DNA of 64,000 nucleotides from Candidatus Latescibacterota bacterium (GCA_965215195.1 CBDCDC010000002.1:896001-960000), one strand, 5' to 3'; positions 38,208-59,380 are shown, counted from the stretch's first letter. Translations and numbers: made by a program. The notes: a model not told the origin generated them from the letters alone.

Positions 38208-40286
38208 ATGAATAGACAACAAGCGGAGAGGCTTCTACAGATAGCTGTAGGCAACCCTGATGCGCGGTTCAGGGCTGGGCAGTGGGAGGCTATTGATGCC
38301 GTGTCGAATTGGAGAGCCAAGCTGCTCCTAGTGCAACGGACGGGTTGGGGTAAGAGTGCCGTGTACTTCGTCGCCACGAGAATCTTCCGCAACGCAGGTC
38401 GCGGCCCAACCATCATCGTATCGCCGCTGCTAGCCCTGATGCGAAATCAGGTTGAGGCGGCGCAGCGACTCGGGATACGCGCTGCATCGATCGACTCGTC
38501 CAATCGCGCTGACTGGGACGACATCATCACGGACGTGCTTAACGATCAGATCGACGCCTTGCTGATAACGCCCGAACGGCTCGCCAACGAAGACTTTCGC
38601 CAGAGCGTACTGATGAAAATTGCAGATCGTATCGGTCTGCTCGTTGTGGACGAGGCACATTGCATCTCCGACTGGGGCCATGACTTCCGGCCCGACTACC
38701 GGCGCTTGACCAACGTGCTGAGAATGCTTCCGCGCAACATGCCGGTCCTCGGCACGACCGCAACTGCCAATGACCGGGTGATTGGCGATATTAAGACGCA
38801 GCTAGCTGATTTCCAAATCCAGCGTGGTCCCCTCTCGCGTCACTCGCTTTCGCTCCAAACCATAAGGCTTGACAGTCAAGCCTCGCGCTTGGCTTGGCTT
38901 GCCCAATCAATTCCGCAGATCCCTAGCAGTGGCATAGTGTACGTACTGACCAAACGCGACGCCGAACAGGTTGCCGCTTGGCTGTCTCGGCAGGGCATTT
39001 CAGCTCGGTCCTACCACGCAGCCGTCTACCACAATAAACGCCGGCGGCTGGAAAACATGCTGCTGAACAACAAGATCAAGGTCTTGGTCGCCACCACAGC
39101 CTTAGGTATGGGATACGACAAGCCGGACCTCAGCTTCGTCATCCACTATCAGGCTCCTAGTTCCGTCGTCGCCTACTATCAGCAGGTGGGCAGAGCCGGC
39201 CGGGCCATCCCTAGTGCCGTTGGGATCCTGCTCGCGGGAAAGGAAGACGAGCAGATTCACGAGTACTTCCGGCGGACGGCCTTTCCACCAGAACATGCGG
39301 TTGCGGCGGTACTCGATGCATTGGAAGAATCTGACGGTAAGTCCATCAATGAACTACAGAACCAGCTAAACATGCGCCAGAGCCAGATTGAGCAGGTCCT
39401 GAAGGTCCTCAGCGTCGAAGTCCCTTCACCTTTCATAAAGGTCGGTTCAAAATGGCACCGCACCGCGGCCGAATTCGAGTTGGACAGGGAGCGCATTCAT
39501 CGACTTTCTGGCCAGAGAGAACGCGAGTGGCAAGAGTTTCAGGAGTACGTCGATACCGACGACTGCTTCATGGAATACCTCGGACGCATGCTGGACGATC
39601 CCGCAGGCGAGAGATGCGGCAAGTGCGCGAACTGCATGGAAAAGCCCGTGATCGCAACCACAGTTGAGCACCCACTGGAGGTAGAAGCGGTCCGCTTTCT
39701 GCGCCGATCGGAACTGCCGTTCGAGCCGAGAGCGAGAATTTCCAAAGGGACACTGCCGACTTACGGGTTCCCAAATGACCGCTTAGTACCGGAGCTGCAG
39801 GCGTCGGAGGGGCGAATTCTGTCGCAGTGGGGAGATGCTGGCTGGGGTGCGGTCGTCGCCGAAGACAAGGAATCTGGGCACTTCCGAGACGAGCTCGTCC
39901 GCGCAGTGGCTGAAATGATCCGAGAGCGATGGCAGCCAGACCCGCCTGCAAAATGGGTTACTTGCGTTCCATCGCTTCGGTGCCCGGCCTTGGTTCCTGA
40001 TTTTGCACGACGCTTGGCATCTACGCTCCAGCTTCCATTCTGCGATGTGATCCAGAAAGTACGAGACTGCCCGCCGCAGAAACAGCAGGAGAACACCTTC
40101 CATCAGTGCCGAAATCTCGACGGCGCATTCAAAGTCGTCGACAGCGTTTCGGCTTCGCCCGTCCTACTCATCGACGATGTAATCGATTCACGCTGGACGA
40201 TGACTGTTCTGGCCGCCCTCCTACAGCACTCTGGAAGCGGCTTGGTTTATCCCGTAGGGCTGGCATCAGCGAGCTCAGGAGGTTGA
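38208..40286 (+). CDS. RecQ-family DNA helicase with C-terminal PRTase-like domain
   Basis: QRTGWGKS, VDEAHCISDWGHDFRPDY, TATA, ALGMGYDKPD, YYQQVGRAGR, Zn motif CGKCANC; C-terminal VLLIDDVIDSRWT PRPP-binding-like motif. Confidence 0.9.
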   Translation: MNRQQAERLLQIAVGNPDARFRAGQWEAIDAVSNWRAKLLLVQRTGWGKSAVYFVATRIFRNAGRGPTIIVSPLLALMRNQVEAAQRLGIRAASIDSSNRADWDDIITDVLNDQIDALLITPERLANEDFRQSVLMKIADRIGLLVVDEAHCISDWGHDFRPDYRRLTNVLRMLPRNMPVLGTTATANDRVIGDIKTQLADFQIQRGPLSRHSLSLQTIRLDSQASRLAWLAQSIPQIPSSGIVYVLTKRDAEQVAAWLSRQGISARSYHAAVYHNKRRRLENMLLNNKIKVLVATTALGMGYDKPDLSFVIHYQAPSSVVAYYQQVGRAGRAIPSAVGILLAGKEDEQIHEYFRRTAFPPEHAVAAVLDALEESDGKSINELQNQLNMRQSQIEQVLKVLSVEVPSPFIKVGSKWHRTAAEFELDRERIHRLSGQREREWQEFQEYVDTDDCFMEYLGRMLDDPAGERCGKCANCMEKPVIATTVEHPLEVEAVRFLRRSELPFEPRARISKGTLPTYGFPNDRLVPELQASEGRILSQWGDAGWGAVVAEDKESGHFRDELVRAVAEMIRERWQPDPPAKWVTCVPSLRCPALVPDFARRLASTLQLPFCDVIQKVRDCPPQKQQENTFHQCRNLDGAFKVVDSVSASPVLLIDDVIDSRWTMTVLAALLQHSGSGLVYPVGLASASSGG

Positions 40287-40287
40287 A

Positions 40288-41949
40288 ATGGCTACATCTG
40301 GCAACAGCGATGCGGTGCTGCTCCTGACGGCGCACCTTTCCGGCTCTGATGACAATGGAGCGAAACCTTTAACGACGAAAGAATGGTGGACATTTGATAA
40401 TTGGCTCAAGGAGCGGAATGTAACCCTAGAATACCTCTTAGAGAATGTGGATGAAGTCTTGGGAGGCAGGTCCGACCCTAGGGGAACTATGGAGAGGATT
40501 AAAAGGCTTTTAGACCGCGGAAGTGCCTTGGGGCTTGCTAAGGATAGGTGGAAGCAAGCGGGCTTATGGTGGTTGACGAGGGCCGACGAGGATTATCCGG
40601 CTCGCCTGAAGAAGCGCCTCGGCCAAGCATCCCCTGCGGTGCTGTACGGCTGTGGTCGCCAAACGCTGCTGCGCTCTAAAGGAATCGCGGTCGTCGGCTC
40701 TCGCGCAGCCTCGGATCGCGATCTTTCTTGGACTCGATTGTTCGGCGAAGCTGTGGCTGATGCCGGTTACTCCGTCGTATCGGGCGGAGCGCGGGGGGTT
40801 GATCAAGCCGCAATGTTCGGGGCACTGGACAAGGGAGGCACTGTTATCGGCATTCTTGCGGACAGCCTGTTGCGCGCGTCGTCAAGCAAGATGTACCGCT
40901 CCCATCTGCGGTCTCAGGAGCTGGTGCTGATCTCGCCGTTCCATCCCGAAGCAGCTTTCACCGTCGGCAGGGCCATGCAAAGGAACAAGTACATCTACTG
41001 CCTGTCCGACAAAGCGTTAGTTGTTCATTCCGGTATAAAGGGTGGTACTTGGGAAGGTGCCATTGAGAACATGAAGAGACAATGGGTGGTCCCTATCTGG
41101 GTTCGCCAAGATAGCGATAATTCTCCTGGCAATGCGGCCCTCTCAAGCGTCCAGCAGACACAAGGTCCTCCGCAGGAAGTAATCCGGCAGATTATAGAAG
41201 GCGACTCCTTACACACTGAAGTAGAGACCGCTTCTTCTGGTGCAGGAAACGTCTCGGAACAACCCGAGTACACCAAGCCGCAGGAGCAAAGTTCTGACCT
41301 ATACGAGCACTTCATTCAGTCGCTCCGCGAACGACTTGCCAACGGGGCTAGCAAAAAATCGCAGTTGGAAAGCCACTATGGCCTAGTGAAGAAGCAGTTC
41401 GACGCTTGGATGAAGAGAGCTGTCGAGGAAAAAGCCGTCACCAAGGACTCGAAGCCGGGGGTCCTTTATAGTTTGAACCAACAGTTTGATCGTATTAGCC
41501 CGCAGGAGCCATCTGGCAACGCTGACCTATACGAGCACTTCATTCAGTCGCTCCGCGAACGACTTGCCAACGGGGCCATCAAAGAATCACAGTTGAAGAA
41601 ACACTATGGCCTAGTGAAGTCGCAGTTCGACGCTTGGATGAAGAAGGCTATTGAGGAAAAAGCCGTCACCAAGGACTCGAAGCCGGGGGTCCTTTATAGT
41701 TTGAACCAACAGACCGAGCACGCCAGTTCGCAGGAGCAAAGTTCTGACCTATACGAGCACTTCATTCAGTCGCTCCGCGAACGACTTGCTAACGAGTTTC
41801 TTAAAAAATCAGAACTGGAAAGCCACTATGGCCTTGTGAAGTCGCAGTTCGACGCTTGGATAAAGAGGGCTATTGAGGAAAAAGTGATCATTAAGAAGAA
41901 GTCGAATCCAGCAGTGCTTAGTTTGAACCAACAGACCGAATTGATTTAG
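40288..41949 (+). CDS. DprA/Smf (SLOG) protein with three C-terminal winged-helix repeats
   Basis: DYPARL..P.VLYGCG, IAVVGSR, VVSGGARGVD, AMQRNKYIY, KGGTWEGA; C-terminal triplicate DLYEHFIQSLRERLAN...QFDAW. Confidence 0.88.
   Translation: MATSGNSDAVLLLTAHLSGSDDNGAKPLTTKEWWTFDNWLKERNVTLEYLLENVDEVLGGRSDPRGTMERIKRLLDRGSALGLAKDRWKQAGLWWLTRADEDYPARLKKRLGQASPAVLYGCGRQTLLRSKGIAVVGSRAASDRDLSWTRLFGEAVADAGYSVVSGGARGVDQAAMFGALDKGGTVIGILADSLLRASSSKMYRSHLRSQELVLISPFHPEAAFTVGRAMQRNKYIYCLSDKALVVHSGIKGGTWEGAIENMKRQWVVPIWVRQDSDNSPGNAALSSVQQTQGPPQEVIRQIIEGDSLHTEVETASSGAGNVSEQPEYTKPQEQSSDLYEHFIQSLRERLANGASKKSQLESHYGLVKKQFDAWMKRAVEEKAVTKDSKPGVLYSLNQQFDRISPQEPSGNADLYEHFIQSLRERLANGAIKESQLKKHYGLVKSQFDAWMKKAIEEKAVTKDSKPGVLYSLNQQTEHASSQEQSSDLYEHFIQSLRERLANEFLKKSELESHYGLVKSQFDAWIKRAIEEKVIIKKKSNPAVLSLNQQTELI
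41280..41940. repeat. Three ~222-228-bp intragenic repeats in dprA
   Basis: ctgacctatacgagcacttcattcagtcgctccgcgaacgacttgc at 41294, 41522 and 41744. Confidence 0.92.
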
Positions 41950-42110
41950 AAGGCAAATATCGTCGGGTGTGCGGTACACCGCTGCGGTGCGTTGGTGGGG
42001 TCACGTTCCCGCCCGCAGCCAGTTGTAGCGATCATTGGGCGCAGCTTGACGCTATTTGTAATCTCGTCAACCTTTAGTAAGCTAAAGATAACCACGCCCG
42101 AGATAATAGT

Positions 42111-44702
42111 ATGACCCAAGCAGATGCACACACCGACTACGAGCGATTGTTGCTGGTCTATCTCCACGACCCGGTCGACAAGGCTCTCGACATCCGCGGA
42201 CACGAGGCCCGCGCCACCCGCTACGCTTCGCACGCCCGCGGCTGGGACGCGACCCGCCGAGAAATCAAGCATTCAGCTCAGCTAGCAGACCAACTCGCCG
42301 CCATCGCCGAGCGCATCCCCATGCCGACCGCAGGACCCAAGGGAGCGCGCGCCGTCGGCCCGGAAGACGGGCGGATCGAAGTGCGGCATCCGGTCAGCGC
42401 ACAAACAGACATGCTGGAGGGGCTGGCCCTCGACGAGAACCGCGTGGCAGAGGTGATTGACCGCATCGTCGCCGGTCTGCCCGACGACCCGCGGACGCGC
42501 TTTCTCGCGCTCTGGCGGCTGCTGCCCGAACGGCTTGCCCCACAGATCGCTCGGCTGCCGGCCGACACCCGCGTACCCGACCACACGCTGATTCAACACG
42601 CAGACATCACAAGCGGCATCTGGGCCAGTACAGAGACACGCGGCCATGCGTACCTATCGCTCTCGCTCGGCCCGGTGCAGACGTTTATCGAAGCGGCCCG
42701 CAGCGTGCGCGATTTGTGGTCGGGCAGCGCCATTCTGTCGTGGCTGACGTTCCAAGGCATCGGCCCGGTGCTCAACGCACTCGGGCCGACTGCGCTCGTC
42801 TATCCAGCCCTGCGCGGCAATCCGCTGATGGACCTGTGGCTGCGCGAGCAGGACGGGCTAGAGGACCGAGTACCAGTACCGTCGAAAACATTGCGCCGGG
42901 CCCCGTCCATCCCCAACCGCTTTGTCGCTCTCGTACCCTATGGGCCGGACGGTTCCCATGCCAAAGCCATGGCGCAAGCCTGTGCCAAAGCGGTCCGTGC
43001 GGCTTGGCAATGCCTTGCAGACGAGGTGCATCGCTCCCTCGATGGGAAATTCTCGGCAATCAACCCTGATTGGGCACGGCACTGGCAAGAGCAAGTGAAT
43101 GGCTTCTTCGACGTCAAAACCTCCATTCTACACGAGCGAGACCTGCGCGATGAACAGCTAGCCCGTCTGATCGGCGGCAAGGACTCATTCGACGAAGTGT
43201 GGTGTGAGGCCGCCAAGGTGCGTAGACTGGCCGACGCGATTCCACGCAACGAGCGTCCGGGCTACGACCAGCATTCAGCCGGCCGCTGGCAAGCCCAACT
43301 CGAAGCATCGGCGCGGCTGATGGAAGCCCAGCGTTCTATCCGCCACGTGCCGACTATTGAGGTCGAGACACCCACTCCGCCCAAGTGCAGCCTGCTCGGC
43401 TCCTACGAGCAGATGGGGCCGGCCGCTCTCAGTGATTCCCGAGACTTCTGGGACGAGGCTGCCAAGGCAGTCTCGGTAGCCGGCGTCCGCCTGCGAAAAC
43501 GCGAGCGTTTTTCCGCGGTCGCCTTGTGCAAGCGGTTTGCCGCACCGGCGTTCTTCGTCCGCCAATTAAAGCTCAATCAGCGTGCCTTGCGCTTCCCGGA
43601 TACGGCGACAGTAGCAGCGGCCGCATGGCTGGCCGCGGAGGGAATCAACCCGGACGATATCCGGTGTGAACACAACGACTGGAACGGCCGCTGGCTTCAC
43701 CAAAAACACCAAAACGATGTGGAGGATGGCGACCAACCTCCGCCGGAGGGAGTTTGGCAGAAAATCAAGGCCGCACGTAAGGAGAATCCACCGCCCGCTT
43801 ACTACGCGATTCTGGCGATGGACGCGGACGACATGGGCCAGTGGCTCAAGGGCGATCATGCGCCCAAGGTGCGCGAGGTCCTGCACCCGAAAATGGTCCG
43901 TTACTACGAGCAGCTTGGCGACGAGGCCACGGCCGGCCTTGAGGCCCGGCGGCCCGTTGGCCCGGCCCTGCACGCCTCAATCAGCGAAGCTCTCAACAAT
44001 TTCGCCAGCCACATCGCCCCCGGCATTGTAGAGAACGACAAGGGCACGATGATCTACTCAGGCGGCGACGATGTCTTGGCCCTGCTGCCGGCGCGCCGGG
44101 CGGTCGCTTGTGCGGCAGAGTTGTGCCGCGCCTTCCGCGGCGAGGACAAAGGCCCGCCCGGCTATATAGAGCGAGACGGGCACCAACTGCTGACCATGGG
44201 CGCGAAGGCCACCCTATCGGCCGGCATTGCCTTTGTACACTACAAGGAGGATTTGCGCTTGGCACTCCAAGCGGCCCGCGACGCGGAAAAAACCGCTAAG
44301 AAAAACGGCAAGAATCAGCTTGCACTTTGCTTTATGCGCCGTTCCGGCGAGCACTCCAAGGCTGGTCTGTCGTGGGAACATGGGCCGTGGTTCCAAAAGA
44401 TGATTGCCATCTTCGCCGATGGGGCCACCGCCCGCTGGACCTATCGCCTGCGCCAAGAACTGCCGACCTTGCAGGGCAGCAACATTTCCGCCGGAGCTGT
44501 TGCTGCCGAGATACGACGGCTCGTGGATCGGACCAAAGACGACAAGGCCTCCGGTTCAACTGGTCCTACAGGCGAAGACGCGGAGCGCTGGTGGCAGGCT
44601 TTTTCTCAAGCAGGGCGACAACGTGGAGATCTTCTCAAGGACTTCACCCTACTGTGCCAAGGGGCGTCGTTCGTAGCGCGAGGTCGCGATGAAGGACGGT
44701 AA
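42111..44702 (+). CDS. cas10: Type III-B CRISPR Cas10/Cmr2
   Basis: N-terminal LHDPVDKA, GPVQTFIEAARSVRDLWSGS, YYAILAMDADDMG, IYSGGDDVLA (intact GGDD). Confidence 0.93.
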   Translation: MTQADAHTDYERLLLVYLHDPVDKALDIRGHEARATRYASHARGWDATRREIKHSAQLADQLAAIAERIPMPTAGPKGARAVGPEDGRIEVRHPVSAQTDMLEGLALDENRVAEVIDRIVAGLPDDPRTRFLALWRLLPERLAPQIARLPADTRVPDHTLIQHADITSGIWASTETRGHAYLSLSLGPVQTFIEAARSVRDLWSGSAILSWLTFQGIGPVLNALGPTALVYPALRGNPLMDLWLREQDGLEDRVPVPSKTLRRAPSIPNRFVALVPYGPDGSHAKAMAQACAKAVRAAWQCLADEVHRSLDGKFSAINPDWARHWQEQVNGFFDVKTSILHERDLRDEQLARLIGGKDSFDEVWCEAAKVRRLADAIPRNERPGYDQHSAGRWQAQLEASARLMEAQRSIRHVPTIEVETPTPPKCSLLGSYEQMGPAALSDSRDFWDEAAKAVSVAGVRLRKRERFSAVALCKRFAAPAFFVRQLKLNQRALRFPDTATVAAAAWLAAEGINPDDIRCEHNDWNGRWLHQKHQNDVEDGDQPPPEGVWQKIKAARKENPPPAYYAILAMDADDMGQWLKGDHAPKVREVLHPKMVRYYEQLGDEATAGLEARRPVGPALHASISEALNNFASHIAPGIVENDKGTMIYSGGDDVLALLPARRAVACAAELCRAFRGEDKGPPGYIERDGHQLLTMGAKATLSAGIAFVHYKEDLRLALQAARDAEKTAKKNGKNQLALCFMRRSGEHSKAGLSWEHGPWFQKMIAIFADGATARWTYRLRQELPTLQGSNISAGAVAAEIRRLVDRTKDDKASGSTGPTGEDAERWWQAFSQAGRQRGDLLKDFTLLCQGASFVARGRDEGR

Positions 44703-45765
44703 TACCCTACTCCAGCTATCGCTTGAGCCGGTTGACGGCCTCTTCTTCCGCGATGCGCGGCCATTTGAGCAGGCCAGCCGGGCACAGTCCGGCCTGCCCA
44801 TGCCGCAGACCCTCGCCGGTGCCGTGCGTAGCCTGCTGCTGGAGCGGCACGGGGTGGATTTCGTCCGGCTGGGAGAACGGATGCAAACCGGCGCTTCCTT
44901 TGCCGAAGCTCTGACCGAGCTTGGCCCGGAGGTTGCAGCCGTGGCCTCGGTGCAGGTACGCGGCCCTTGGTTCACCTTGAATGGCGAGGTACTGATGCCG
45001 ACGCCGGCCACCCTCAAACGAAAAAAGAAAACCGCAAAGCTCGTGCGGCTTGACCCGCTCAAAGTGCCGCTGCCGGGTTGGCGGCCCGAAGTGCCGGGGA
45101 TGCTGCCGTTGTGGCGGCGCGGCCGGGAAACCGCAGAGCCCGCCGATGATTTCCTCAAACTGTCCGGTTTGCATCGCTTCCTCAACGGCGGTACGCCAAA
45201 ACCGGACGAATTGGTGCCGACAAACGACTTGTACGATTTCGACGACCGCACCGGCATTGGCATCGATCCGAGCCGCAACGCCGCGGCCGAAGGTTTCATT
45301 TATGGCATCAGGATGCTGGTCCTGAAATCTGAGGCTGGCTTGTACGCTGAACTGAGCGGTCCTGAGGCCGCGCTAGTGCCGATCGCGGCCGAACCCGGGC
45401 TGATGCGTTTGGGCGGCGAAGGCCGGCACGTCGCGGTCCGCACGGTTGAGCGGCCGGTCAACTGGCCGCAGATACCGCCCGCAGCGGACAAAGGCCGGCT
45501 GGTGCTGCTGGCCACGCCGGCTTGGTTCAATGGCTGGAAGCCGCCGGCCCTCGATCCGGTAGCAGCGGCCGTTGGTAACGGGCAGCCGGTTTCCGGCTGG
45601 GACTTAGCCAAAGGCGCTCCCAAGCCCAACCGCTTCATGGTCCCGGCCGGGTCCGTCTATTTTTTGCCACCAAACGCCCAAGTCCCAGACAAATTAGTCG
45701 CTGACGACGAAGACGCGAGCGTCGGGTGGGGTAGCTTTCTGGAGGGAAACTGGAACTATGTCTGA
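44689..45765 (+). CDS. cmr3: Type III-B Cmr3 (Cas5-like)
   Basis: LEPVDGLFFRDARPF, PQTLAGA, RLGGEGR, SGWDLA..PKP...VPAGSVY, GWG. Confidence 0.92.
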   Translation: MKDGNTLLQLSLEPVDGLFFRDARPFEQASRAQSGLPMPQTLAGAVRSLLLERHGVDFVRLGERMQTGASFAEALTELGPEVAAVASVQVRGPWFTLNGEVLMPTPATLKRKKKTAKLVRLDPLKVPLPGWRPEVPGMLPLWRRGRETAEPADDFLKLSGLHRFLNGGTPKPDELVPTNDLYDFDDRTGIGIDPSRNAAAEGFIYGIRMLVLKSEAGLYAELSGPEAALVPIAAEPGLMRLGGEGRHVAVRTVERPVNWPQIPPAADKGRLVLLATPAWFNGWKPPALDPVAAAVGNGQPVSGWDLAKGAPKPNRFMVPAGSVYFLPPNAQVPDKLVADDEDASVGWGSFLEGNWNYV

Positions 45766-46651
45766 CAAAACCTTGCTGTTCATTCACGCCCTGACCGGAC
45801 TCCATCCCGGCAGCGGCACGGCCTTGGGCGCGGTCGATTTGCCGGTGCAACGCGAGCGTCATACCGACTGGCCGCTGATACCCGGCTCGTCGCTCAAGGG
45901 CGTCATGCGGGCCGAATACGCGCAGGACAACCGGAAGGATGAAGACGTTCTGGCTGCGTTCGGGCCAGAGACTGAGGCTGCGTCTGACCACGCCGGCGCG
46001 GTCGCCTTTTCGGACGCGCGCATCCTCGCCTTCCCGGTGCGCTCGCTGACCGGCGTGTTCGCTTGGGTGACCTGCCGTGACGTACTGGCCCGGCTTTCGC
46101 GTGATCTCGGGCTCGTTGGCGGCGATAGCTTCCCGGCTGTTCCCACAGTCGCTAAAGACAAAGCCGCTTGCGTCGCGGACAGTCGGCTGCTGGCGCACGG
46201 CGAACAACTCATGCTGGAAGAGTTCGAATTCTCACGCGACGGCGACGCACAGGAAATTGCCAACTGGATCGCTGAGCGGGCCGTGGCAGACGCGGCCACG
46301 AAAATTCGGCTGCGCTCGCATCTGGCCGTTCTGCACGATGACGATTTTACCCACTTCGTCCGCAACGCCACCGAGGTCGTAGCTCGGGTCGGGCTCGACG
46401 AACAGAAGACCGTGCGCAAGGGTGCCCTCTTCTACGAGGAATACCTGCCACCGGAGACCCTCTTCTACTCGCTGGTGCTGTGCAGCAAAAGCCGCCGCAA
46501 GGCACGCGACAAAAGCGCTGCGGAGATTCTCACGTGGCTGCGCGAAAAAGCACCTGAGACGCTCCAAATCGGCGGCGGCGAGACGGTCGGCAAGGGCTTC
46601 TGCGCGGTGCGCTTTGACGACGCGGCCAAGGAGGAAAACAATGAGCGATAG
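45758..46651 (+). CDS. cmr4: Type III-B Cmr4 (Cas7 RAMP)
   Basis: LHPGSG..VDLPVQRERHT, PGSSLKGVMR, LFYEEYLP, LQIGGGETVGKG. Confidence 0.95.
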   Translation: MSDKTLLFIHALTGLHPGSGTALGAVDLPVQRERHTDWPLIPGSSLKGVMRAEYAQDNRKDEDVLAAFGPETEAASDHAGAVAFSDARILAFPVRSLTGVFAWVTCRDVLARLSRDLGLVGGDSFPAVPTVAKDKAACVADSRLLAHGEQLMLEEFEFSRDGDAQEIANWIAERAVADAATKIRLRSHLAVLHDDDFTHFVRNATEVVARVGLDEQKTVRKGALFYEEYLPPETLFYSLVLCSKSRRKARDKSAAEILTWLREKAPETLQIGGGETVGKGFCAVRFDDAAKEENNER

Positions 46652-47069
46652 CCGGCCCACCCTCGACCAACGTCGGGCCCAACACGCTTGGAAGACTGTA
46701 GAGCAAGCCAAAGCCTCACTCAACGCGAAAAAAGACAAGGAGGATTTTGCCCGCGAAGCCAAGCGGCTGCCGGTGCGCATCAAGACCGCCGGCTTGGGGC
46801 AGGCACTCGCTTTTCTCCTCGCAAAGGCCAAGCAGGACAAAAACAAAGGAGAAGACGCCCGTGGCCGACTGCTGGTTGCGCTAGGCGACTGGCTCCTAAA
46901 AGAGCGCGAATTGGCGACCCGTCCTAACGCCGCCGCCGACCGCGTACTAATCCAAACCCTCATCAACGGCGACGCCAACCTGCTGCGCCGCGCCACTGAA
47001 GAGGCGCTCCTGTACCTGCAATGGCTGACCCGGTTCAGCGAGGCCGAACTCGGAACGGGAGAGGAGTAA
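46641..47069 (+). CDS. cmr5: Type III-B Cmr5 (Cas11)
   Basis: TLDQRRAQHAW, KRLPVRIKTAGLGQALAFL, ATEEAL..LQWLTRFSEA; ATG 46641 after GGAGG. Confidence 0.92.
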   Translation: MSDSRPTLDQRRAQHAWKTVEQAKASLNAKKDKEDFAREAKRLPVRIKTAGLGQALAFLLAKAKQDKNKGEDARGRLLVALGDWLLKERELATRPNAAADRVLIQTLINGDANLLRRATEEALLYLQWLTRFSEAELGTGEE

Positions 47070-47072
47070 GCG

Positions 47073-50265: not shown

Positions 50266-50321
50266 CAGCAAAGTCGGCACCAACGACATTGAAAATCCAC
50301 TTAAACACCGGGAGATATCCT

Positions 50322-51452
50322 ATGCCTAGACACACCCTTCTCTGCACTGTTGGGACGAGCTTGTTCTATCCCAATTTGTCTGGTCTCACTCACGAACCGC
50401 AGGATGACCCCATCCGTGCTGCCTTGGCTAGCGCTTATAACGAACAGAAATGGTCGAAGGTGGCGACTCAGCTATATTTAAATGTCGAACCAACGGAACG
50501 GCTCTGTGGGGCGGAGATCAATTCGGTGACTGATCTCGTCGAGCATGAACCCGTCGAGAAAGGTGCCCTTCACCTGCTATATTCCGATACGGAGGATGGA
50601 AAAGCTATCGCTGCCGTTCTGGAGCACTACTTTAGCCTTGACTGGCAGCAGGTACACACCCATCGCGTGGAGGACTTAAGTGATGAATACCCGAGAGCAT
50701 TTCGGACTCGAGGCTTGCGCAACTTGGCGAAACTCTTCGGTGAACGAGTGCGTGAAGCAGGGGCCGATTTTTGTGCCATAAACGCCACCGGTGGCTATAA
50801 AGCCCAAATCGCCATTGCCGTGCTCATGGGTCAAGCACTCAACATTCCAGTGTATTACAAGCATGAACGCTTTGATGCTATTATCCCCTTTCCCCCTATG
50901 CCGGTGGCCCTCGATTTTGAGCTATGGGAACGGGCCAGCGGCATGTTTATGGTGCTCGGTAAGCCCAACGCGTGTGAGCCGTATGAGAATTTTAGCGAGG
51001 ATTGGGATGAGCGCTTTGAACCGCTGGTCATCCGGGTACGGATTGACGACGAGGATTATCTGGAACTCTCGGCAACCGGCCAGATTTTTCACGACACCTT
51101 CCGATCCCGTTTTCAGCAGCATCAGAGCACTAGGCTTCCGCGTGCCGCACGCGAGGACGAGAAGAGGCCGCCCGCTCTGGGAGCTCACGGCTACAACGAG
51201 GCACGAGACAACATTGAGCGCCATTTGCAAAGAATCACCGATGAACGGCCTTATGTCCGCTCCTGCCATTCGACATACTGGAATCCAGATTTGCCTGAAA
51301 GCAATCGGTTTCGGATGGCAAAAGGGGAAGTCCAAGGCATATACTCGAACGGGACTTGGTGCGTGAAATTTACAGTACGCACGACAGCGGAGGATGAGGA
51401 CCAATTACGGATCGTCGTAGCCGATCTCAATGAGTGGCTAGAGACCGCCTAA
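50322..51452 (+). CDS. CRISPR-associated CARF protein (APE2256/Crn1-like) with unassigned C-terminal domain
   Basis: LCTVGTS, CGAEINS, YSDTEDG, INATGGYKA, YYKHERF; 376 aa, longer than a bare CARF. Confidence 0.8.
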   Translation: MPRHTLLCTVGTSLFYPNLSGLTHEPQDDPIRAALASAYNEQKWSKVATQLYLNVEPTERLCGAEINSVTDLVEHEPVEKGALHLLYSDTEDGKAIAAVLEHYFSLDWQQVHTHRVEDLSDEYPRAFRTRGLRNLAKLFGERVREAGADFCAINATGGYKAQIAIAVLMGQALNIPVYYKHERFDAIIPFPPMPVALDFELWERASGMFMVLGKPNACEPYENFSEDWDERFEPLVIRVRIDDEDYLELSATGQIFHDTFRSRFQQHQSTRLPRAAREDEKRPPALGAHGYNEARDNIERHLQRITDERPYVRSCHSTYWNPDLPESNRFRMAKGEVQGIYSNGTWCVKFTVRTTAEDEDQLRIVVADLNEWLETA

Positions 51453-51474
51453 AAGACGCGCCCGGAGCACCCCC

Positions 51475-52512
51475 ATGCTCACCCTCTACGTCACCGAACC
51501 CTCGGCTGTCGTCCGCCGCACGGCCGGCTCCATCACCGTCACGCTCGATGAAGACCCCGACGGCACGGGTCCCCTGCCCGAACGACGGCGACGCTTGCTT
51601 GAAGTTGAGCCGCATCGCTTGGAGCTGATTGCATTGGTGGGCCGCGCCCACATCACCTTAGACGCGACGCGGCTCTGCTTAGAGCAAGGCATTGCAGTCG
51701 CTTGGTTTCGCAGGAACGGCGACTTTGTGGGCCGCCTCGTCCCCGAACTGTCGCGCACGGCCGATCTGCGCTTGGCGCAGTTTCGCCTCGCGGACGACGA
51801 GCACCAAGCACTGCCGCTGGCCCAAACCTTTGTCGCAGCTAAACTCCACAATGCAGCCGGGGTACTCGCGGCCCTGCGCTCCAACCGCCGCAATGAGCCG
51901 ACCCTCGGCCGCGCCATAACCAAACTCAAAGCCATGGCCGCGACCGTAGCCCAAGCACCCACGCGCGAGGCTCTGCTGGGCTTTGAAGGCGATGCGGCCC
52001 GCCGCTACTTTGCGGGCTTCAAGCTCGGGTTCACCAGCGACATTCGCTTTGTTAGCCGCGCCCGCCGGCCGCCGCCGGACCCGGCCAATGCCCTGCTCTC
52101 GTTTGGCTATGTGCTGTTGGCCAATGCCTTGGCCAGCCTTTTGGAGGCCCGTGGTTTTGACCCGTATCTCGGGTTTATGCACACGGTCCGGTCCGGTCGG
52201 CCCAGCTTGGCCCTCGACTTGCTCGAAGAACTGCGGCACCCGGTAGTCGATCGCTTTGTCTTGCGCGTTTGCAATTTGCGCCAACTGCGGCCGGCGCATT
52301 TTGAGGCCGATTCTGCGCGAGGGGGTGTGCGTCTTACACGCGATGGGATGCACATCTTTTTTCGCGCTTGGGAAGCGTTTATGGATGCTCCCCTGCCCGG
52401 AATCGCCGAGAACATCGCACCAGAAAATTTGATTCGCCGTCAAGCCGATCGCTTAGCCGCTCACGTGCGCCAACGCGATCCCTATAAACCCTTGCTTTTG
52501 CGTCGCTTATAA
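51475..52512 (+). CDS. cas1: CRISPR integrase Cas1
   Basis: LGFEGDAARRYF, RRPPPDPANALLSFGY, GFDPYLGFMH, SLALDLLEELR. Confidence 0.95.
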   Translation: MLTLYVTEPSAVVRRTAGSITVTLDEDPDGTGPLPERRRRLLEVEPHRLELIALVGRAHITLDATRLCLEQGIAVAWFRRNGDFVGRLVPELSRTADLRLAQFRLADDEHQALPLAQTFVAAKLHNAAGVLAALRSNRRNEPTLGRAITKLKAMAATVAQAPTREALLGFEGDAARRYFAGFKLGFTSDIRFVSRARRPPPDPANALLSFGYVLLANALASLLEARGFDPYLGFMHTVRSGRPSLALDLLEELRHPVVDRFVLRVCNLRQLRPAHFEADSARGGVRLTRDGMHIFFRAWEAFMDAPLPGIAENIAPENLIRRQADRLAAHVRQRDPYKPLLLRRL

Positions 52513-52525
52513 AGGAGGACGGCCT

Positions 52526-52813
52526 ATGTCTCACTATGTCGTATGCTACGATGTGGTCGATAACAAACGCCGCTACAAGGTGGCCGCTTGTTTGGATGCT
52601 TATGGCGATCGCGTACAGAACAGCGTGTTTGAACTGCCCATGGATAGCACACTTTTGGACAAGTGCATCGCCGAGGTCGCTGGTCTGATCGACGCGGCCA
52701 AAGACAATGTAGCCATCTATCGCCTCTGCTCGGCCTGTGCGACCGAGCGTTTCTATTTGGGCGTGGGGGAAAAGGCCGAACGCATCGGCGATGAGCAGGT
52801 CTTCATCGCGTGA
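52526..52813 (+). CDS. cas2: CRISPR Cas2
   Basis: YVVCYDV.DNKRR, YGDRVQNSVFE, IYRLCSAC. Confidence 0.95.
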   Translation: MSHYVVCYDVVDNKRRYKVAACLDAYGDRVQNSVFELPMDSTLLDKCIAEVAGLIDAAKDNVAIYRLCSACATERFYLGVGEKAERIGDEQVFIA

Positions 52814-53009: not shown

Positions 53010-56000
53010 ATGTGAAGTTCTGCCCCGCTTATCAGGGGATTGAAACCTTTCTCTTGGTTGGGGCGCGGCGGCAGGCGCAGCTGGGATGTGAAGTTCTGCC
53101 CCGCTTATCAGGGGATTGAAACTAGAGAACACCCAGCTCATCTTCGGGGCGCCCCCCTTCCATGTGAAGTTCTGCCCCGCTTATCAGGGGATTGAAACCA
53201 TTGACATCGCCATTCATGCGATCAAGCGCGTGGCGGCGGTCCATGTGAAGTTCTGCCCCGCTTATCAGGGGATTGAAACCCCTCGTGGAAGCCCTCGCCC
53301 CGGTGCGCCAGCAAGACGCGCTGGATGTGAAGTTCTGCCCCGCTTATCAGGGGATTGAAACCGTCCCCCGCGCTGCCGATGAGGGGCCAGACATGGGCGG
53401 TGGATGTGAAGTTCTGCCCCGCTTATCAGGGGATTGAAACTCCTGATCTTGGCAGAACAGGGCGTCGTCCCCCGTCATATGTGAAGTTCTGCCCCGCTTA
53501 TCAGGGGATTGAAACACTACCCCACCCTCGGCTTCGACGACATCGTGGGCTTATGTGAAGTTCTGCCCCGCTTATCAGGGGATTGAAACGGGTGTCGGGG
53601 GGAGCCGCGCCCGCTACCGGGCGGACCTGTATGTGAAGTTCTGCCCCGCTTATCAGGGGATTGAAACGATGGCTTCTATGAGGGAGTTGATACCACCCCC
53701 AACTATGTGAAGTTCTGCCCCGCTTATCAGGGGATTGAAACTAACTCGAGAGATTGACAGTTAGATTCTAACAATTAAAATGTGAAGTTCTGCCCCGCTT
53801 ATCAGGGGATTGAAACTCGGTCGCTGTTCTCTGGTGTATCCGCGCCTCCGGTCAAAATGTGAAGTTCTGCCCCGCTTATCAGGGGATTGAAACCCGGTGA
53901 ACCCACTGCTCTAGATGGGTCACCCGCGTCGAAATAATGTGAAGTTCTGCCCCGCTTATCAGGGGATTGAAACCCTCGCTATCCGCACTATTGCGGATTT
54001 TGTCGTGTAGTTATGTGAAGTTCTGCCCCGCTTATCAGGGGATTGAAACCCGATTGACCTCGCGAAACTGGGTAGGGATCATCACTCCATCATGTGAAGT
54101 TCTGCCCCGCTTATCAGGGGATTGAAACTCTTCTCCATTGAGAAGTTCGTTTGCTACATGGGCCATATGTGAAGTTCTGCCCCGCTTATCAGGGGATTGA
54201 AACGAGCAGAGCCGCGCTCTCCGCCGCTTCGGCGATACTGAAAAAATGTGAAGTTCTGCCCCGCTTATCAGGGGATTGAAACACGTGGTGCCTGTGCGAC
54301 GCCTGCGCCTTGGAGGCGTGGCATGTGAAGTTCTGCCCCGCTTATCAGGGGATTGAAACAAAGCGTCCGCCGCCGCCCACGCATCGAGGCCCCGGCAGCA
54401 AATGTGAAGTTCTGCCCCGCTTATCAGGGGATTGAAACCTGACCTCATTGGGGGGCACCCTCTATATGAGCGACGCGATGTGAAGTTCTGCCCCGCTTAT
54501 CAGTGCGGCAGCGCCGGATGCACGCAGTACACGGCCCCTAAGTGAGCGACGCGATGTGAAGTTCTGCCCCGCTTATCAGGGGATTGAAACCGGGTACCAG
54601 CCTGACCCATGCTCAGACGGCCCATGAGCAAGATGTGAAGTTCTGCCCCGCTTATCAGGGGATTGAAACGGCCTTGGGGCCGACGGGGGGCGGCTTTACA
54701 CGTTCAGCGATGTGAAGTTCTGCCCCGCTTATCAGGGGATTGAAACCTCGGCCTCAGTTGCCAGCGACGCACCGTTATACGCAGCCATGTGAAGTTCTGC
54801 CCCGCTTATCAGGGGATTGAAACTGGAGCACCGCGCCCTCCCAGATGTACCGCCGCCCCATGTGAAGTTCTGCCCCGCTTATCAGGGGATTGAAACGAGC
54901 AGAGCCGCGCTCTCCGCCGCTTCGGCGATACTGAAAAAATGTGAAGTTCTGCCCCGCTTATCAGGGGATTGAAACACGTGGTGCCTGTGCGACGCCTGCG
55001 CCTTGGAGGCGTGGCATGTGAAGTTCTGCCCCGCTTATCAGGGGATTGAAACGACAACTATAATACGTACCATGGGATTTCTCCTTTTTATATGTGAAGT
55101 TCTGCCCCGCTTATCAGGGGATTGAAACATGCCCGTGGCGTAGGTGAGGCCCAGCTCCTGCGTGTCGTCATGTGAAGTTCTGCCCCGCTTATCAGGGGAT
55201 TGAAACGTGGGGTCCTCCCCTGTCGTCAGCACAGCCGTCGGAAGGATGTGAAGTTCTGCCCCGCTTATCAGGGGATTGAAACGTAGCCAGCCGCCACCGT
55301 GTAAACTTCGGTGGAGGCGACCTTATGTGAAGTTCTGCCCCGCTTATCAGGGGATTGAAACTCCACGTACGACGCTATCTCGTCGCGGAAGGCCTCGATC
55401 CCATGTGAAGTTCTGCCCCGCTTATCAGGGGATTGAAACTTTGGTAGTGCCATAGTGTTTCCGTATTGCGAGTTTCACATGTGAAGTTCTGCCCCGCTTA
55501 TCAGGGGATTGAAACATGGTTCTCTCACTCTCTTGAAACAATTCTTCTGTTTTTTCCATGTGAAGTTCTGCCCCGCTTATCAGGGGATTGAAACGTAGCC
55601 AATTCGCGTTGCGTTGCGTAACTCGGCGCCCTCGCTATGTGAAGTTCTGCCCCGCTTATCAGGGGATTGAAACCAAGGCCACTCAAGGTTGCAACGCGGG
55701 CCTGCGGGTCCATGTGAAGTTCTGCCCCGCTTATCAGGGGATTGAAACGATGATTCCGAACGGACCCTGATCGATCGTCAAGCCGATATGTGAAGTTCTG
55801 CCCCGCTTATCAGGGGATTGAAACCGCCGCCTAGCGCAGCACCTGGCGGCATTGTCCCCGGCGATGTGAAGTTCTGCCCCGCTTATCAGGGGATTGAAAC
55901 GACGGCCTGAGCGTCTAGTCGGGCTTGCTTTTCTTTCTCATGTGAAGTTCTGCCCCGCTTATCAGGGGATTGAAACGGCCCTTGGCGAGGTAATACATCC

Positions 56001-58510
56001 CCGTGCATACAGCCCCATGTGAAGTTCTGCCCCGCTTATCAGGGGATTGAAACTTGGGGGACCTGGGCTTCATACGGCTGGGGCGCGGCCGTATGTGAAG
56101 TTCTGCCCCGCTTATCAGGGGATTGAAACATCCGCTTCATGGTATTCTCCATGTTTCGGGTCATCCCCCCATGTGAAGTTCTGCCCCGCTTATCAGGGGA
56201 TTGAAACCTATCAACGTGTGCGCCAGATCAGTCCCCCTCGTCGAAGAGCCATGTGAAGTTCTGCCCCGCTTATCAGGGGATTGAAACGCGATGACTCGGA
56301 TGGGGGGCACTCGCGGGTACGCGACTATGTGAAGTTCTGCCCCGCTTATCAGGGGATTGAAACCCAGCCGGCCACGCAGCAGGGCGTGTTACACAGGAGG
56401 GATGTGAAGTTCTGCCCCGCTTATCAGGGGATTGAAACCTGCGACGCCGGGCGAGTCCAGATCCGCGGCCAGCAGGCATGTGAAGTTCTGCCCCGCTTAT
56501 CAGGGGATTGAAACGACACCATCCCCTTTGGAGGAGGCCGAGTGCCTTTTCATGTGAAGTTCTGCCCCGCTTATCAGGGGATTGAAACCCCCACAGGGGC
56601 AGCCCTTGGCAGACGCCGGCGAGGATACGATGTGAAGTTCTGCCCCGCTTATCAGGGGATTGAAACCCCCACAGGTCGCGGGGCGTGGTGTGCTCCTCGT
56701 CGAGATGTGAAGTTCTGCCCCGCTTATCAGGGGATTGAAACCCTTTAATCAGCTTTCGCTGACCCCTCAGGAATCACCCCCCATGTGAAGTTCTGCCCCG
56801 CTTATCAGGGGATTGAAACATTTGCTTGGCCATGCTTAGCGAACATTCCAGCTGGATAACCAATGTGAAGTTCTGCCCCGCTTATCAGGGGATTGAAACT
56901 CCTGCTTCTTAAATTTGCCACCACTCTCAGTGATGGCGTTATGTGAAGTTCTGCCCCGCTTATCAGGGGATTGAAACTCTACTGGTGCTATCAACTCCTG
57001 CACACCGACACGAACCTTGATGTGAAGTTCTGCCCCGCTTATCAGGGGATTGAAACCGGGCCTTTTGTGTAGTACAGAATCGTGTCGTGTCCCATGTGAA
57101 GTTCTGCCCCGCTTATCAGGGGATTGAAACACCGTGCGGCTTGCTCCTCGGTCAAGGCGATGTCGAAGTATATGTGAAGTTCTGCCCCGCTTATCAGGGG
57201 ATTGAAACGTAGACGACAAGGCCACGCGGGAGGATTTGTCGGCGGCGGGATGTGAAGTTCTGCCCCGCTTATCAGGGGATTGAAACGCGCGGCCGGCGGC
57301 TCTGTGCAGCGGCCTTTTTCCTTGATGTGAAGTTCTGCCCCGCTTATCAGGGGATTGAAACCCGCAGCCCCCGGCCGAGACGGCTGCGGGGGGCCTCGGC
57401 GAGATGTGAAGTTCTGCCCCGCTTATCAGGGGATTGAAACGGAACGCCATGAAGTACATTATCGAGGAGTTCTCACCGTCGGATGTGAAGTTCTGCCCCG
57501 CTTATCAGGGGATTGAAACCTCTACTTCGGCCTCCTCTTCGTTCTCATCGAGGAGAAGATGTGAAGTTCTGCCCCGCTTATCAGGGGATTGAAACTGAAT
57601 GGGCGAGAGGGACCGGCAGCCGTTGAAGCCGACATGTGAAGTTCTGCCCCGCTTATCAGGGGATTGAAACTGACCCGACGCTGCCCCCGTCTCCTAGTGG
57701 GCTGACCCTATGTGAAGTTCTGCCCCGCTTATCAGGGGATTGAAACGCGGCCATGAGCTGTTTGTCCGCCTCTTTTTCCGCCGAATGTGAAGTTCTGCCC
57801 CGCTTATCAGGGGATTGAAACCAAGGCCTGCTGGCCCCGTAGAGCCACGACCGGGAGAGGCACATGTGAAGTTCTGCCCCGCTTATCAGGGGATTGAAAC
57901 CGTAGACCTCGGGCTGGACGCTGGGCACCCAGAAGTCGAGATGTGAAGTTCTGCCCCGCTTATCAGGGGATTGAAACCCGCCGCCAACGCCAACCCCTTC
58001 ACGGAGTCGGTCGGGGCATGTGAAGTTCTGCCCCGCTTATCAGGGGATTGAAACTGGCGTCGCTCGTCGCGCGGGCAATTGCCGTTGTCTTGGCATGTGA
58101 AGTTCTGCCCCGCTTATCAGGGGATTGAAACTCGCTTTGCGCCATTTCAGTGTAGGCCAACCAAGCATACCCATGTGAAGTTCTGCCCCGCTTATCAGGG
58201 GATTGAAACCGCAAGGACTCCATATTTCCCTCCTTGTTTTATGGCGTATGTGAAGTTCTGCCCCGCTTATCAGGGGATTGAAACCTCGCCGCCGGTCAGC
58301 CCCAGCGCATCCAGGTCCAGATGTGAAGTTCTGCCCCGCTTATCAGGGGATTGAAATTGAACTGATCGCCGTCGAGCTCGTACGGCTTCTCCATGTATGT
58401 GAAGTTCTGCCCCGCTTATCAGGGGATTGAAACCGCTTAGCCCGGTCCTCGGCGGATAGGCCCAGCTCATCGGATGTGAAGTTCTGTCCTGCTTATCAGG
58501 GGATTGACGA
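53010..58510 (+). CRISPR. CRISPR array, 37-bp repeat ATGTGAAGTTCTGCCCCGCTTATCAGGGGATTGAAAC, ~72 repeats / ~71 spacers of roughly 35-45 bp
   Basis: Counted by eye. 3' ATTGAAAC tag, leader at left, degenerate terminal repeat at 58474, one truncated repeat at 54478. Confidence 0.98.
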
Positions 58511-58564
58511 CCCTGCCAGTACATTTGTTGTTTGTCGCCTATAAATAGATCGGCACAAGCCGCT

Positions 58565-59380
58565 ATGCACTGGCACAAACACCTCGAAGTGCTGCTTTCT
58601 CGCGTTCAGATACAGGCGTGGCAACTTCTGCTCGACACGCCCGAGGTGCGGGCGACCGCGCCCATGTTGCGCGGCGTCTGGGGACGCGCACTGCGACATT
58701 TGGATGAGGAAGTTTATCAGCAGGTTTTTGCAGGCAAAGCATTGGGACATCGCCGCATCCCCCGCTACATCCTGCGACCTGCCCCCCCCGACCCGGCGAT
58801 TGCACCGGCTATCGAGTGGATCCTGCTCGGGGTGGATGAGGAACTGGAGGAAGTGCTGTGGCGGGCATGGGATGTGGCCAGCGGCATGGGGCTGGGGCCG
58901 GAGCGCGTACCGTTTCGCATCCGCGAGCGGCGGCCCCTCAGCGCGGGCCAATCCGACTGGCCCCTGACCGGCGATCCAGCCACAACGCCGTGCAGCCTAC
59001 AGTTTGGTACGCCGCTGCGCCTACTCCGCCGCGGCACCCTCCTTGCGGCACCCGACTTAGCGGCCATCGCCACAGCCGCTATGCGCCGCTATGCTGGCCT
59101 AGCCGGTATAACCGGCGGAGAATCCTACCGCGACTTGATGCGAGCCGTCAAGCAGCAAGCCGCCGCAACGCCGGCCGCCCCTTGGCGCGGTGGTCGGCTC
59201 GATTTTTTGCGCTGGTCCAGCACCCAACAGCGCGAGCTAAACCTGCGCGGCGTAGTCGGCGCGTTGGACTTGCCCGCTGGTCCCGGCCCGCTCTGGCCCC
59301 TGTTGGCCGCATCCTGTTGGACCCACATTGGCAAAGGCGCGGTATTTGGCTTAGGCCAATTGTGCATCGAAAAATCCTGA
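58565..59380 (+). CDS. cas6: CRISPR endoribonuclease Cas6
   Basis: LRGVWGRAL, FGTPLRL, RWSSTQ and C-terminal G-rich loop HIGKGAVFGLGQ. Confidence 0.88.
   Translation: MHWHKHLEVLLSRVQIQAWQLLLDTPEVRATAPMLRGVWGRALRHLDEEVYQQVFAGKALGHRRIPRYILRPAPPDPAIAPAIEWILLGVDEELEEVLWRAWDVASGMGLGPERVPFRIRERRPLSAGQSDWPLTGDPATTPCSLQFGTPLRLLRRGTLLAAPDLAAIATAAMRRYAGLAGITGGESYRDLMRAVKQQAAATPAAPWRGGRLDFLRWSSTQQRELNLRGVVGALDLPAGPGPLWPLLAASCWTHIGKGAVFGLGQLCIEKS

Follow-up and report, generated by a model that had tools for sequence, protein, structure and literature searches.

We analysed a 64,000-nt stretch of DNA from Candidatus Latescibacterota bacterium (GCA_965215195.1 CBDCDC010000002.1:896001-960000), called the window throughout, with positions given relative to the stretch. 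It carries two genes, psyrT and psyrA, on the same strand and 1 nt apart, followed after a gap of 161 bp by cas10 and the rest of a co-oriented type III-B CRISPR-Cas locus. An earlier interpretation of this DNA (the sequence-only reading), which had the coordinates, the 1-nt spacing, the shared orientation and the 161-bp gap right, saw here a candidate composite system. It left two alternatives, a stand-alone, helicase-armed defence or toxin-antitoxin (TA) module stacked in the island, or an ancillary CRISPR module. Profile searches and a comparison of the hot spot across related genomes support the first of these. We conclude that psyrTA and the III-B locus are very probably two independent, already described defence systems that share one integration hot spot, where they sit next to each other as its cargo (Table 1). 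This is ordinary defence-island stacking and no new composite system.

Judged by its profile matches, the gene pair is a full-length PsyrTA/RqlHI toxin-antitoxin defence system and a member of an already known family. The PADLOC PsyrT profile matched the first open reading frame (ORF1) with an E value of 1.6e-294, and residues 1-690 aligned to positions 1-686 of the 689 in the profile. The helicase core was recognised by Pfam (DEAD, 1.9e-23; Helicase_C, 5.3e-18) and by the NCBIfam model recQ_fam, at 258.6 bits against a cut-off of 219.8. The Pfam model Pribosyltran stayed under its cut-off in ORF1 (E = 0.0019; 17.9 vs 26.3 bits), and PF00156 is found in many of the homologues. The motifs GWGKS (Walker A, K49) and VVDEAH (D148), the cysteines C453/C470/C473/C476 and the sequence LLIDDVIDS at residues 652-660, which is the acidic phosphoribosyl pyrophosphate (PRPP)-binding loop of the phosphoribosyltransferase (PRTase)-like domain, are all intact. 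When 12 homologues with 63-85% identity to PsyrT were aligned, every one of these motifs proved invariant, D656, D657 and D660 included. Thus, the proposal of a RecQ-family core joined to a PRTase-like C-terminus holds. A search with PsyrT gave 8000 scored matches at E<=1e-20, many of them 62-68% identical, which by sequence marks a large family with strong conservation across phyla; the closest homologue on a plasmid had 58.9% identity.

The second open reading frame (ORF2) matched the PADLOC PsyrA profile at E = 1.6e-145 over residues 1-390, and the ShosA profile at merely 7.8e-25. Pfam assigned it DNA_processg_A (6.9e-39) and the SLOG family LDcluster4 (2.7e-10). An AlphaFold2 model of PsyrA, with a mean predicted local distance difference test score (pLDDT) of 82.6, resembled DprA of S. 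pneumoniae (3uqz, E = 3.6e-15) and ShosA of E. coli (8zva, E = 2.4e-14), and further structural matches were LOG and Moco-carrier proteins. At the C-terminus, PsyrA has three repeats of ~75 residues each (aa 332-405, 406-481 and 482-553), visible in the DNA as 2.8 copies with a period of 228 nt and 81% matches. The modelled repeat consists of a helix, a short strand, two helices and a beta-hairpin, with pLDDT mostly 83-94; as a fold prediction, its topology is that of a winged helix. Pfam gave the repeat no name, returning only sub-threshold matches that are inflated by the repetition. The description of this gene as dprA with three winged helix-turn-helix (HTH) domains is therefore borne out, the winged helices as predicted folds.

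PsyrTA, also called RqlHI, has been described as an anti-phage TA pair made up of a DprA-like antitoxin and a toxin bearing a PRTase domain (10.1101/2022.05.11.491447). A study of E. coli F11 reports that, when RqlI is absent, the PRTase domain of RqlH induces the SOS response and makes the cells filament; RqlI itself has 400 aa, a region resembling DprA and an HTH at its C-terminus (PMC4670107). The closest known systems are these, namely RqlH-RqlI of E. coli F11 and psyrTA of Pseudomonas syringae (PADLOC PDLC03928 and PDLC03927). They have in common with the pair in the window a two-gene operon that starts with the toxin, a toxin of ~690 aa that joins a RecQ-like helicase to a PRTase-like domain, conserved helicase residues K49 and D148, a conserved acidic PRPP loop, and a DprA-like antitoxin with a C-terminal HTH. 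The difference lies in the antitoxin. Whereas RqlI has 400 aa and the PsyrA profile 398 positions, with one winged helix, PsyrA in the window has 553 aa and three.

The sequence-only reading had placed the pair with ShosTA. Its TA character, in which a PRTase toxin is paired with a DprA-like antitoxin, stands; the family is PsyrTA instead. ShosTA is likewise an anti-phage TA system with a DprA-like antitoxin and a PRTase-domain toxin, and ShosA (8zva) is among the top structural matches of our PsyrA model. However, the toxin here is fused to a RecQ-like helicase, which ShosT is not known to have, and because the match to the PsyrA profile is far above that to ShosA, ShosTA is a sister family and not the family of this pair. 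The related ShosT is reported to disturb purine metabolism (PMC11961720).

The three-repeat form of PsyrA is found in G000, the genome under study, and in G001, G002, G010 and G025 of the same genus, and a one-repeat form in G013, G021, G022, G026 and G028. It makes up 5 of the 10 PsyrA ORFs detected in the hot spots of the genus by a hidden Markov model (HMM) of the repeat, which missed two divergent PsyrA of a type ~50% identical (G009, G012). In a wider sample described below, 31 of 110 candidate partner ORFs matched the HMM, all 31 with a single copy. We rejected the idea that PsyrA gained its triple winged helix in adaptation to the neighbouring CRISPR locus, since G001, G002, G010 and G025 have it in a hot spot without III-B; the triplication is thus unrelated to the CRISPR neighbour. 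For specialists, this genus-specific triplication may be of interest in itself. It leaves our conclusion unchanged.

The CRISPR-Cas locus has the hallmarks of type III-B: cmr2 to cmr6 and cmr1, a Cas10 with GGDD, cas6, a repeat array, and cas1-cas2. In Cas10, GGDD lies at aa 651, intact as the sequence-only reading had it, and an HD dipeptide at aa 19. What differs from type III-B is that cmr6 and cmr1 are fused and that a uma2 gene lies inside the locus. The fusion protein contains ~290 residues outside its Cmr6 and Cmr1 matches and is a single frame also in G005, G007, G018 and G027. The inner uma2 gene, uma2a, sits between cmr6-cmr1 and the CARF gene, in the same position as in G005, G007 and G027. 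The true start of cmr5 is probably later than that of the listed ORF because the family match begins at aa 80-82. Within the array, a 198-nt stretch of two spacers with their repeats is duplicated (54162-54359 and 54855-55052, 99% identity), and the repeat copy at 54478-54514 is degenerate in its 3' half.

No submitted ORF of the locus had a family match to HEPN, NucC, Cas4 or reverse transcriptase (RT) in Pfam, PADLOC or NCBIfam, in agreement with the sequence-only reading. Its further claim, that the locus has no classical effector, does not hold. The gene between the cmr genes and cas1 encodes a protein that matched PADLOC CARF7--CARF_DUF2103 over its full length (3.7e-117) and Pfam Cas_APE2256 (4.9e-31), and that has 1701 homologues at E<=1e-10. 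Its start is very probably Met12, giving 376 aa, because an identical database entry has that length. The best Foldseek match to its structure model (mean pLDDT 82.3) was Cami1 (8phb, E = 6.2e-13). By VIA-align, model residues 4-195 superimposed on 8phb with Z = 19.6 and a root mean square deviation (rmsd) of 3.0 over 175 residues at 27% identity, and the ring nuclease Sis0811 (7pq2) gave Z = 18.2. The CARF domain therefore resembles those of the CARF-RelE protein Cami1 (8phb/8phj) and of the Crn1-type Sis0811, and by this resemblance the likely ligand is cyclic tetra-adenylate (cA4). Over a longer stretch, Foldseek aligned 404 columns with Cami1 but at an rmsd of 19.4, while VIA-align reached residues 4-195 only, and the CARF_RelE profiles align to the protein at positions 2-209 of 294, which is the CARF and linker part. 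The C-terminal domain does not match the RelE part of these profiles; it is modelled as a helix, four strands and a helix (pLDDT ~90), and the PADLOC class is CARF7--CARF_DUF2103.

With this protein in place, the locus reads as a complete III-B system with a predicted sensor of cyclic oligoadenylate (cOA), cas1, cas2, cas6 and an array. Among the orthologous III-B loci of the genus, the same position holds a CARF7-DUF2103 protein in G000, G007 and G027 and a Csx1 with CARF and HEPN domains in G005 (L201:9403-10734, E = 1.2e-61), and the locus of G018 has neither an ancillary CARF protein nor cas1. Because the ancillary protein varies in this way, the slot is an exchangeable effector position.

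Table 1. Positions of the genes and elements of the hot spot and its borders in the window
Feature	Position	Strand	Description
amidohydrolase gene	36230..37798	+	left anchor; Pfam Amidohydro_3 4.2e-27; single copy in 31/31 genus genomes, 79-95% identity
orf117	37799..38152	-	left border, small conserved protein; adjoins the amidohydrolase gene in 23/24 relatives' contiguous hot spots
element P, copy 1	38170..38207	+	GCTTGACGCTGTTT...TTTAG; left-flank element, directly upstream of psyrT
psyrT (rqlH)	38208..40286	+	692 aa; RecQ-like helicase, Cys4 cluster, C-terminal PRTase-like toxin domain
psyrA (rqlI)	40288..41949	+	553 aa; DprA/SLOG-fold antitoxin, three tandem winged-helix repeats (nt 41281-41946)
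uma2 internal fragment	41948..42003	-	abuts the psyrA stop codon
element P, copy 2, and cas10 leader	42044..42110	+	directly before cas10
cas10/cmr2	42111..44702	+	NCBIfam TIGR02577 1.6e-65; Pfam Cmr2_N, Cas10 palm2
cmr3	44689..45765	+	Pfam Cas_Cmr3 7.5e-59
cmr4	45758..46651	+	NCBIfam TIGR02580 3.8e-76
cmr5	46422..47069	+	Pfam Cas_Cmr5 6.9e-26, aa 82-208; listed ORF overlaps cmr4
cmr6-cmr1 fusion	47073..49457	+	794 aa; PADLOC Cmr6 aa 94-303, Cmr1 aa 317-505; NCBIfam cmr6, cmr1
uma2a	49600..50265 (ORF listed from 49354)	+	Uma2-family PD-(D/E)xK; Pfam Uma2 3.7e-31, PADLOC PDC-S03
CARF7-DUF2103 protein gene	50289..51452	+	predicted cOA-sensing ancillary effector; between the cmr genes and cas1
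cas1	51475..52512	+	Pfam Cas_Cas1 3.3e-84
cas2	52526..52813	+	Pfam CRISPR_Cas2 2.3e-19
CRISPR array	53010..58449	+	71 copies of a 37-nt repeat ending ATTGAAAC
cas6	58532..59380	+	PADLOC Cas6 3.8e-49; Pfam CRISPR_Cas6 3.2e-11
hairpin and T-run	59478..59515	-	read by eye as uma2b terminator; single copy in the G000 genome
uma2b	59556..60167	-	full-length Uma2 gene; Pfam Uma2 5.4e-37, PADLOC PDC-S03 9.8e-24
CoA-transferase gene	60316..61503	-	right anchor; Pfam CoA_transf_3 1.4e-136; in 24/24 relatives' stretches, 78-94% identity

The relation between the two systems was followed across 31 genomes of the genus (G000-G030). In whole-genome searches (PsyrT at E<=1e-100, this Cas10 clade at E<=1e-20), two genomes had both PsyrT and this Cas10 (G000 and G007), eight had PsyrT only, three Cas10 only, and 18 neither. 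Independence would lead one to expect ~1.6 genomes with both, a figure that is descriptive only, as related genomes are non-independent samples. The Cas10 clade was found in 5 of 168 genomes of the phylum, all five in this genus.

For the hot spot itself, the 20 kb past the amidohydrolase gene from 24 relatives were compared with the window, giving 25 contiguous hot spots with that of G000; the fragmentary genomes G016, G017, G019 and G024 were left out, and G006 and G007 were read from split contigs. On the right, the genes for the CoA-transferase and a GHMP-type kinase (60316-63217) recurred in all 24 relatives compared. On the left, orf117, which had no match in Pfam, PADLOC or NCBIfam, was not detected in the G026 hot spot. 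Between these borders the content varies. The hot spot is empty in G008, G014, G015 and G023. PsyrTA without III-B is present as an 86-90% identical type in G001, G002, G010, G022 and G025, as a 50%-identical variant in G009 (L200) and G012 (L203), and, on a separate contig beside the right-hand anchors, in G006. III-B without PsyrTA occupies the hot spot in G005, G018 and G027, psyrA without psyrT is found in G013, G021, G026 and G028, and other or small cargo in G003, G004, G011, G020, G029 and G030. In the relatives, psyrA usually has a uma2 gene next to it on the right, and a hairpin of the uma2b type flanks psyrTA on both sides in G002 and G010 and on the upstream side only in G022.

The two genomes with both modules have them in opposite orders, with PsyrTA to the left of cas10 in G000 and to the right of cas6 in G007. 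In the latter, III-B directly follows orf117 on one contig, and another contig has CARF7, cas1, cas2, the array, cas6, an orf117 fragment, psyrT and psyrA. The PsyrT proteins closest to that of G000 are those of G001 and G022 (90%), whose hot spots lack III-B; the nearest Cas10 belongs to G018 (81%), whose hot spot lacks PsyrTA; and the PsyrT and Cas10 of G007 are the most divergent of their groups. With its fixed core flanks and its empty or variable cargo (PsyrTA, III-B, an MkoA-like module, Uma2) in 25 genomes, the locus resembles other integration hot spots of defence islands, and it differs from them in that alleles are stacked with visible scars, seen as duplicated flank fragments in G000, G007, G009 and G012.

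Outside the genus, we sampled 160 PsyrT loci with 41-67% identity, 80 from contigs of one genome per species and 80 from metagenomes. At least 5 kb of downstream flank was available in 81 of the 160 and at least 5 kb of upstream flank in 81 of the 160, and the 81 loci with enough flank fell into 47 clusters at 70% PsyrT identity. By tblastn, a psyrA-like partner lay beside PsyrT in 83 of the 160 loci. The ten Cas and ancillary proteins of the window had a tblastn match in none of them (0/80 genome and 0/80 metagenome loci), and a simple repeat scan found a CRISPR-like array in one of the 160, ~8 kb downstream in L030. PADLOC recognised no Cas protein among 239 downstream ORFs and no core Cas among 112 upstream ORFs, where the sole Cas-labelled match was a WYL-domain protein (L048). 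PsyrT homologues are thus rarely near cas genes, one of the outcomes that the sequence-only reading had itself named beforehand as speaking against a composite system. Our literature searches, supplementary tables aside, returned no paper tying PsyrTA to CRISPR, and none that by title or abstract linked type III CRISPR with a DprA accessory.

The neighbours that PsyrTA does have in these loci are other defence systems: type I restriction-modification (RM; L048, L049, L131), Hma (L020, L062), PglX with Septu (L102), AbiE (L013, L046) and HEC-01 (L014, L020). In some cases PsyrTA is nested inside a defence operon, with gaps of ~10-60 nt where the flanking ORFs could be resolved. In Providencia heimbachae (L049, 6695-16683) it is flanked by the hsdS and hsdR genes of a type I RM system, and in L062 (1532-16291) and L020 (1476-16757) by hmaB and hmaC. 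This layout resembles that of PrrC within prrI. The nesting inside type I RM and Hma operons may interest specialists and does not change our verdict.

The junction between psyrA and cas10 carries traces of how the two systems came together. By its make-up, the 161-bp gap is a recombination scar, consisting of a piece of uma2 and a second copy of the left-flank element P. The 6.13-Mb genome has exactly two copies of the 14-nt core of P, GCTTGACGCTnTTT, at 38170 and 42044 of the window. The copy before psyrT is nearly identical to that before psyrT in G007. In G018, which has no psyrTA, a single ~40-nt copy of P together with the cas10 leader fills the spacer between orf117 and cas10, and this spacer is 88% identical to 42044-42124 of the window over 82 nt. 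The uma2 fragment corresponds to aa 135-186 of Uma2b (50%, tblastn), and by blastn it is 82-92% identical to uma2 in G001, G002, G004, G005, G009, G010, G020, G025, G028 and G029; in these ten relatives the matching gene trails psyrA or borders the hot spot. G012 and G013 match the fragment over a longer stretch, at 76%. The resulting order is orf117, P, psyrTA, uma2 fragment, P, III-B, uma2 and CoA-transferase, and the G+C content is 0.54-0.58 in psyrTA vs 0.61-0.63 in the cas genes. Similar stacking, with duplicated orf117 fragments, is seen in G007, G009 and G012. Such an order would be expected if a 'PsyrTA allele' and a 'III-B allele' of the hot spot had undergone unequal or illegitimate exchange; the homologies are observed, and from them we infer the exchange.

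If so, recombination between alternative alleles of the hot spot would have made the two systems neighbours, leaving behind the uma2 fragment and the duplicated left-flank element. Each would then work on its own. PsyrT would be a RecQ-like 3'-5' helicase that owes its genotoxicity to the C-terminal PRTase-like domain, and PsyrA, with its DprA/SLOG fold and C-terminal winged helices, would restrain it. Upon phage infection the toxin would be freed or activated, and the ensuing DNA damage and growth arrest would stop the phage. These steps have been shown for E. coli RqlHI and one tested PsyrTA, and full-length homology and intact motifs suggest them here. On the III-B side, the Cas10 cyclase with its GGDD would make cOA upon binding of target RNA, and the CARF7-DUF2103 protein would sense it. 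Since the linkage is not conserved, the modules are mostly apart in the genus and the junction is a scar, two stacked systems account for the locus, and functional dependence is neither needed nor indicated.

Several points weigh against this interpretation or narrow its base. The toxicity, neutralisation and phage defence ascribed to this pair are expected by homology. For the putative effector domain that follows the CARF domain (aa ~215-376), neither Pfam nor sequence and profile searches of the PDB identified a relative: Pfam gave sub-threshold matches only, the PDB searches matched the CARF part alone, and ESM Atlas had no usable match to residues 225-387. The tblastn screen of the wider loci used as queries a single III-B set, the ten window proteins, at E<=1e-3. 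Downstream, PADLOC (E<=1e-12) screened 239 ORFs out of 272 that lie within 7.5 kb. This covered 40 of the 47 representative loci completely and L136 partly, the other 33 ORFs belonging to the rest of L136 and to L139, L142, L161, L162, L165 and L174. Upstream, the screen (E<=1e-15) was limited to 26 loci and to ORFs no shorter than 150 aa lying within 6 kb, 112 in all. Two of the five III-B loci in this clade have PsyrTA beside them, so that some benefit of pairing is possible; a hot spot common to both modules itself predicts this number. Finally, a promoter and terminator scan of 37700-42400 found nothing in either intergenic region, two predicted plus-strand 'terminators' fell inside the psyrA repeats, and the RNA fold of the 161-bp gap was unremarkable (z -1.4, no U-tract). 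As the gap has no terminator-like site, read-through from psyrA into cas10 is possible.

This last point bears on the idea that the systems are separate in origin and have become coupled here, through read-through, through the winged helices of PsyrA binding to the duplicated P, or through PsyrTA acting as a guard that is set off by a block of its neighbour, as PrrC is for its restriction system. A P element of ~40 nt precedes both psyrT and cas10, the copy before cas10 contains an inverted repeat, TTGACG-N13-CGTCAA, read by eye, and elsewhere PsyrTA is nested between hsdS and hsdR (L049) or hmaB and hmaC (L020, L062). A preprint, moreover, suggests that PsyrTA may act in a PrrC-like manner (10.1101/2022.08.21.504612). 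However, P forms the left flank of the hot spot itself and is present in G001, G009, G010, G022, G025 and G029, which have no III-B there. Since it occurs in relatives with PsyrTA but no III-B, or with neither, recombination explains its duplication, and we consider coupling improbable. A bolder version of this idea would see PsyrTA as a 'lodger' or guard that lives habitually within or beside defence operons (type I RM, Hma and, here, III-B), with the triple-winged-helix antitoxin binding both copies of P and so tying Cmr expression or toxin release to the state of its neighbour; we mention this as a speculation of very low probability.

The second alternative of the sequence-only reading, that PsyrTA is an ancillary module of III-B, would have PsyrA sense Cas10 nucleotides through its SLOG-like fold, or the pair supply prespacers in place of Cas4. 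SLOG folds in other systems bind nucleotide signals, and PsyrA has a fold of this type by its LDcluster4 match (2.7e-10) and its structural matches to LOG and Moco-carrier proteins. The two loci are directly adjacent in the same orientation, and Cas4 and RT are without a match in the locus ORFs. Yet the linkage is conserved neither in the 160 wider loci, with no match in any of them and no core Cas in 351 ORFs, nor in the genus, where the modules are mostly apart: three orthologous III-B loci are without PsyrTA, and seven contiguous hot spots and G006 have PsyrTA without III-B. The order is reversed in G007, a CARF sensor is already part of the III-B locus, recombination has left its scar at the junction, and the triple-winged-helix PsyrA is also found in G001, G002, G010 and G025, with no CRISPR in the hot spot. 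We regard an ancillary role as most unlikely and set that alternative aside. Least likely of all is that this psyrTA is an inactive relic of hot-spot turnover: PsyrTA has decayed in G012 (PsyrT C-terminal and PsyrA repeat fragments) and G026 (a PsyrT fragment), and G013, G021 and G028 keep psyrA without psyrT, but in the window both ORFs are full length, with family profiles matched from end to end and all the invariant motifs retained.

Other observations concern the hot spot and its surroundings. The hot spots with psyrA alone (L202 in G013, L211 in G021, L209 in G028 and L216 in G026) read as loss of the toxin with the antitoxin kept. The psyrT leader element stands directly before psyrA in G013 and G028, in G026 a C-terminal fragment of PsyrT is found there, and an MkoA-like helicase gene lies upstream of the lone psyrA in G013, G021 and G028, not in G026. 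In G012, PsyrTA of the 50% type lies beside remnants of a PsyrT C-terminus and PsyrA repeats of an 85% type, which suggests that one PsyrTA allele was replaced by another. Eight hot spots contain an ORF of 515-540 aa followed by an MkoA-like helicase of 860-1126 aa (E = 1e-69 to 1e-73), at L207:1991-7590 and at equivalent places in G009, G010, G013, G020, G021, G022 and G028. The shorter ORF had no PADLOC match, and the two together may be a variant of a Mokosh-like system. Candidates for HEC-01A/B, an AAA_21 ATPase of 410 aa (3.1e-132) and a DUF4276 protein of 207 aa (1.9e-70, both PADLOC), are encoded on the minus strand at 32700-34516 of the window, among metabolic genes 3.7 kb to the left of the hot spot. 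On the plus strand at 292-5601, seven consecutive ORFs of 113-258 aa had no Pfam match at E<=1e-5, in a region of strongly negative GC skew.

The main value of this analysis lies in a correction. Adjacency and shared orientation mimicked a composite system, while the relatives show stacking of PsyrTA and III-B, and the effector that had seemed to be missing is present. Beyond this, the locus offers a sequence-level picture of how a defence island may grow, in which alternative cargo alleles of one hot spot would recombine into tandem arrays and duplicated fragments of the flanks would stay behind as scars.

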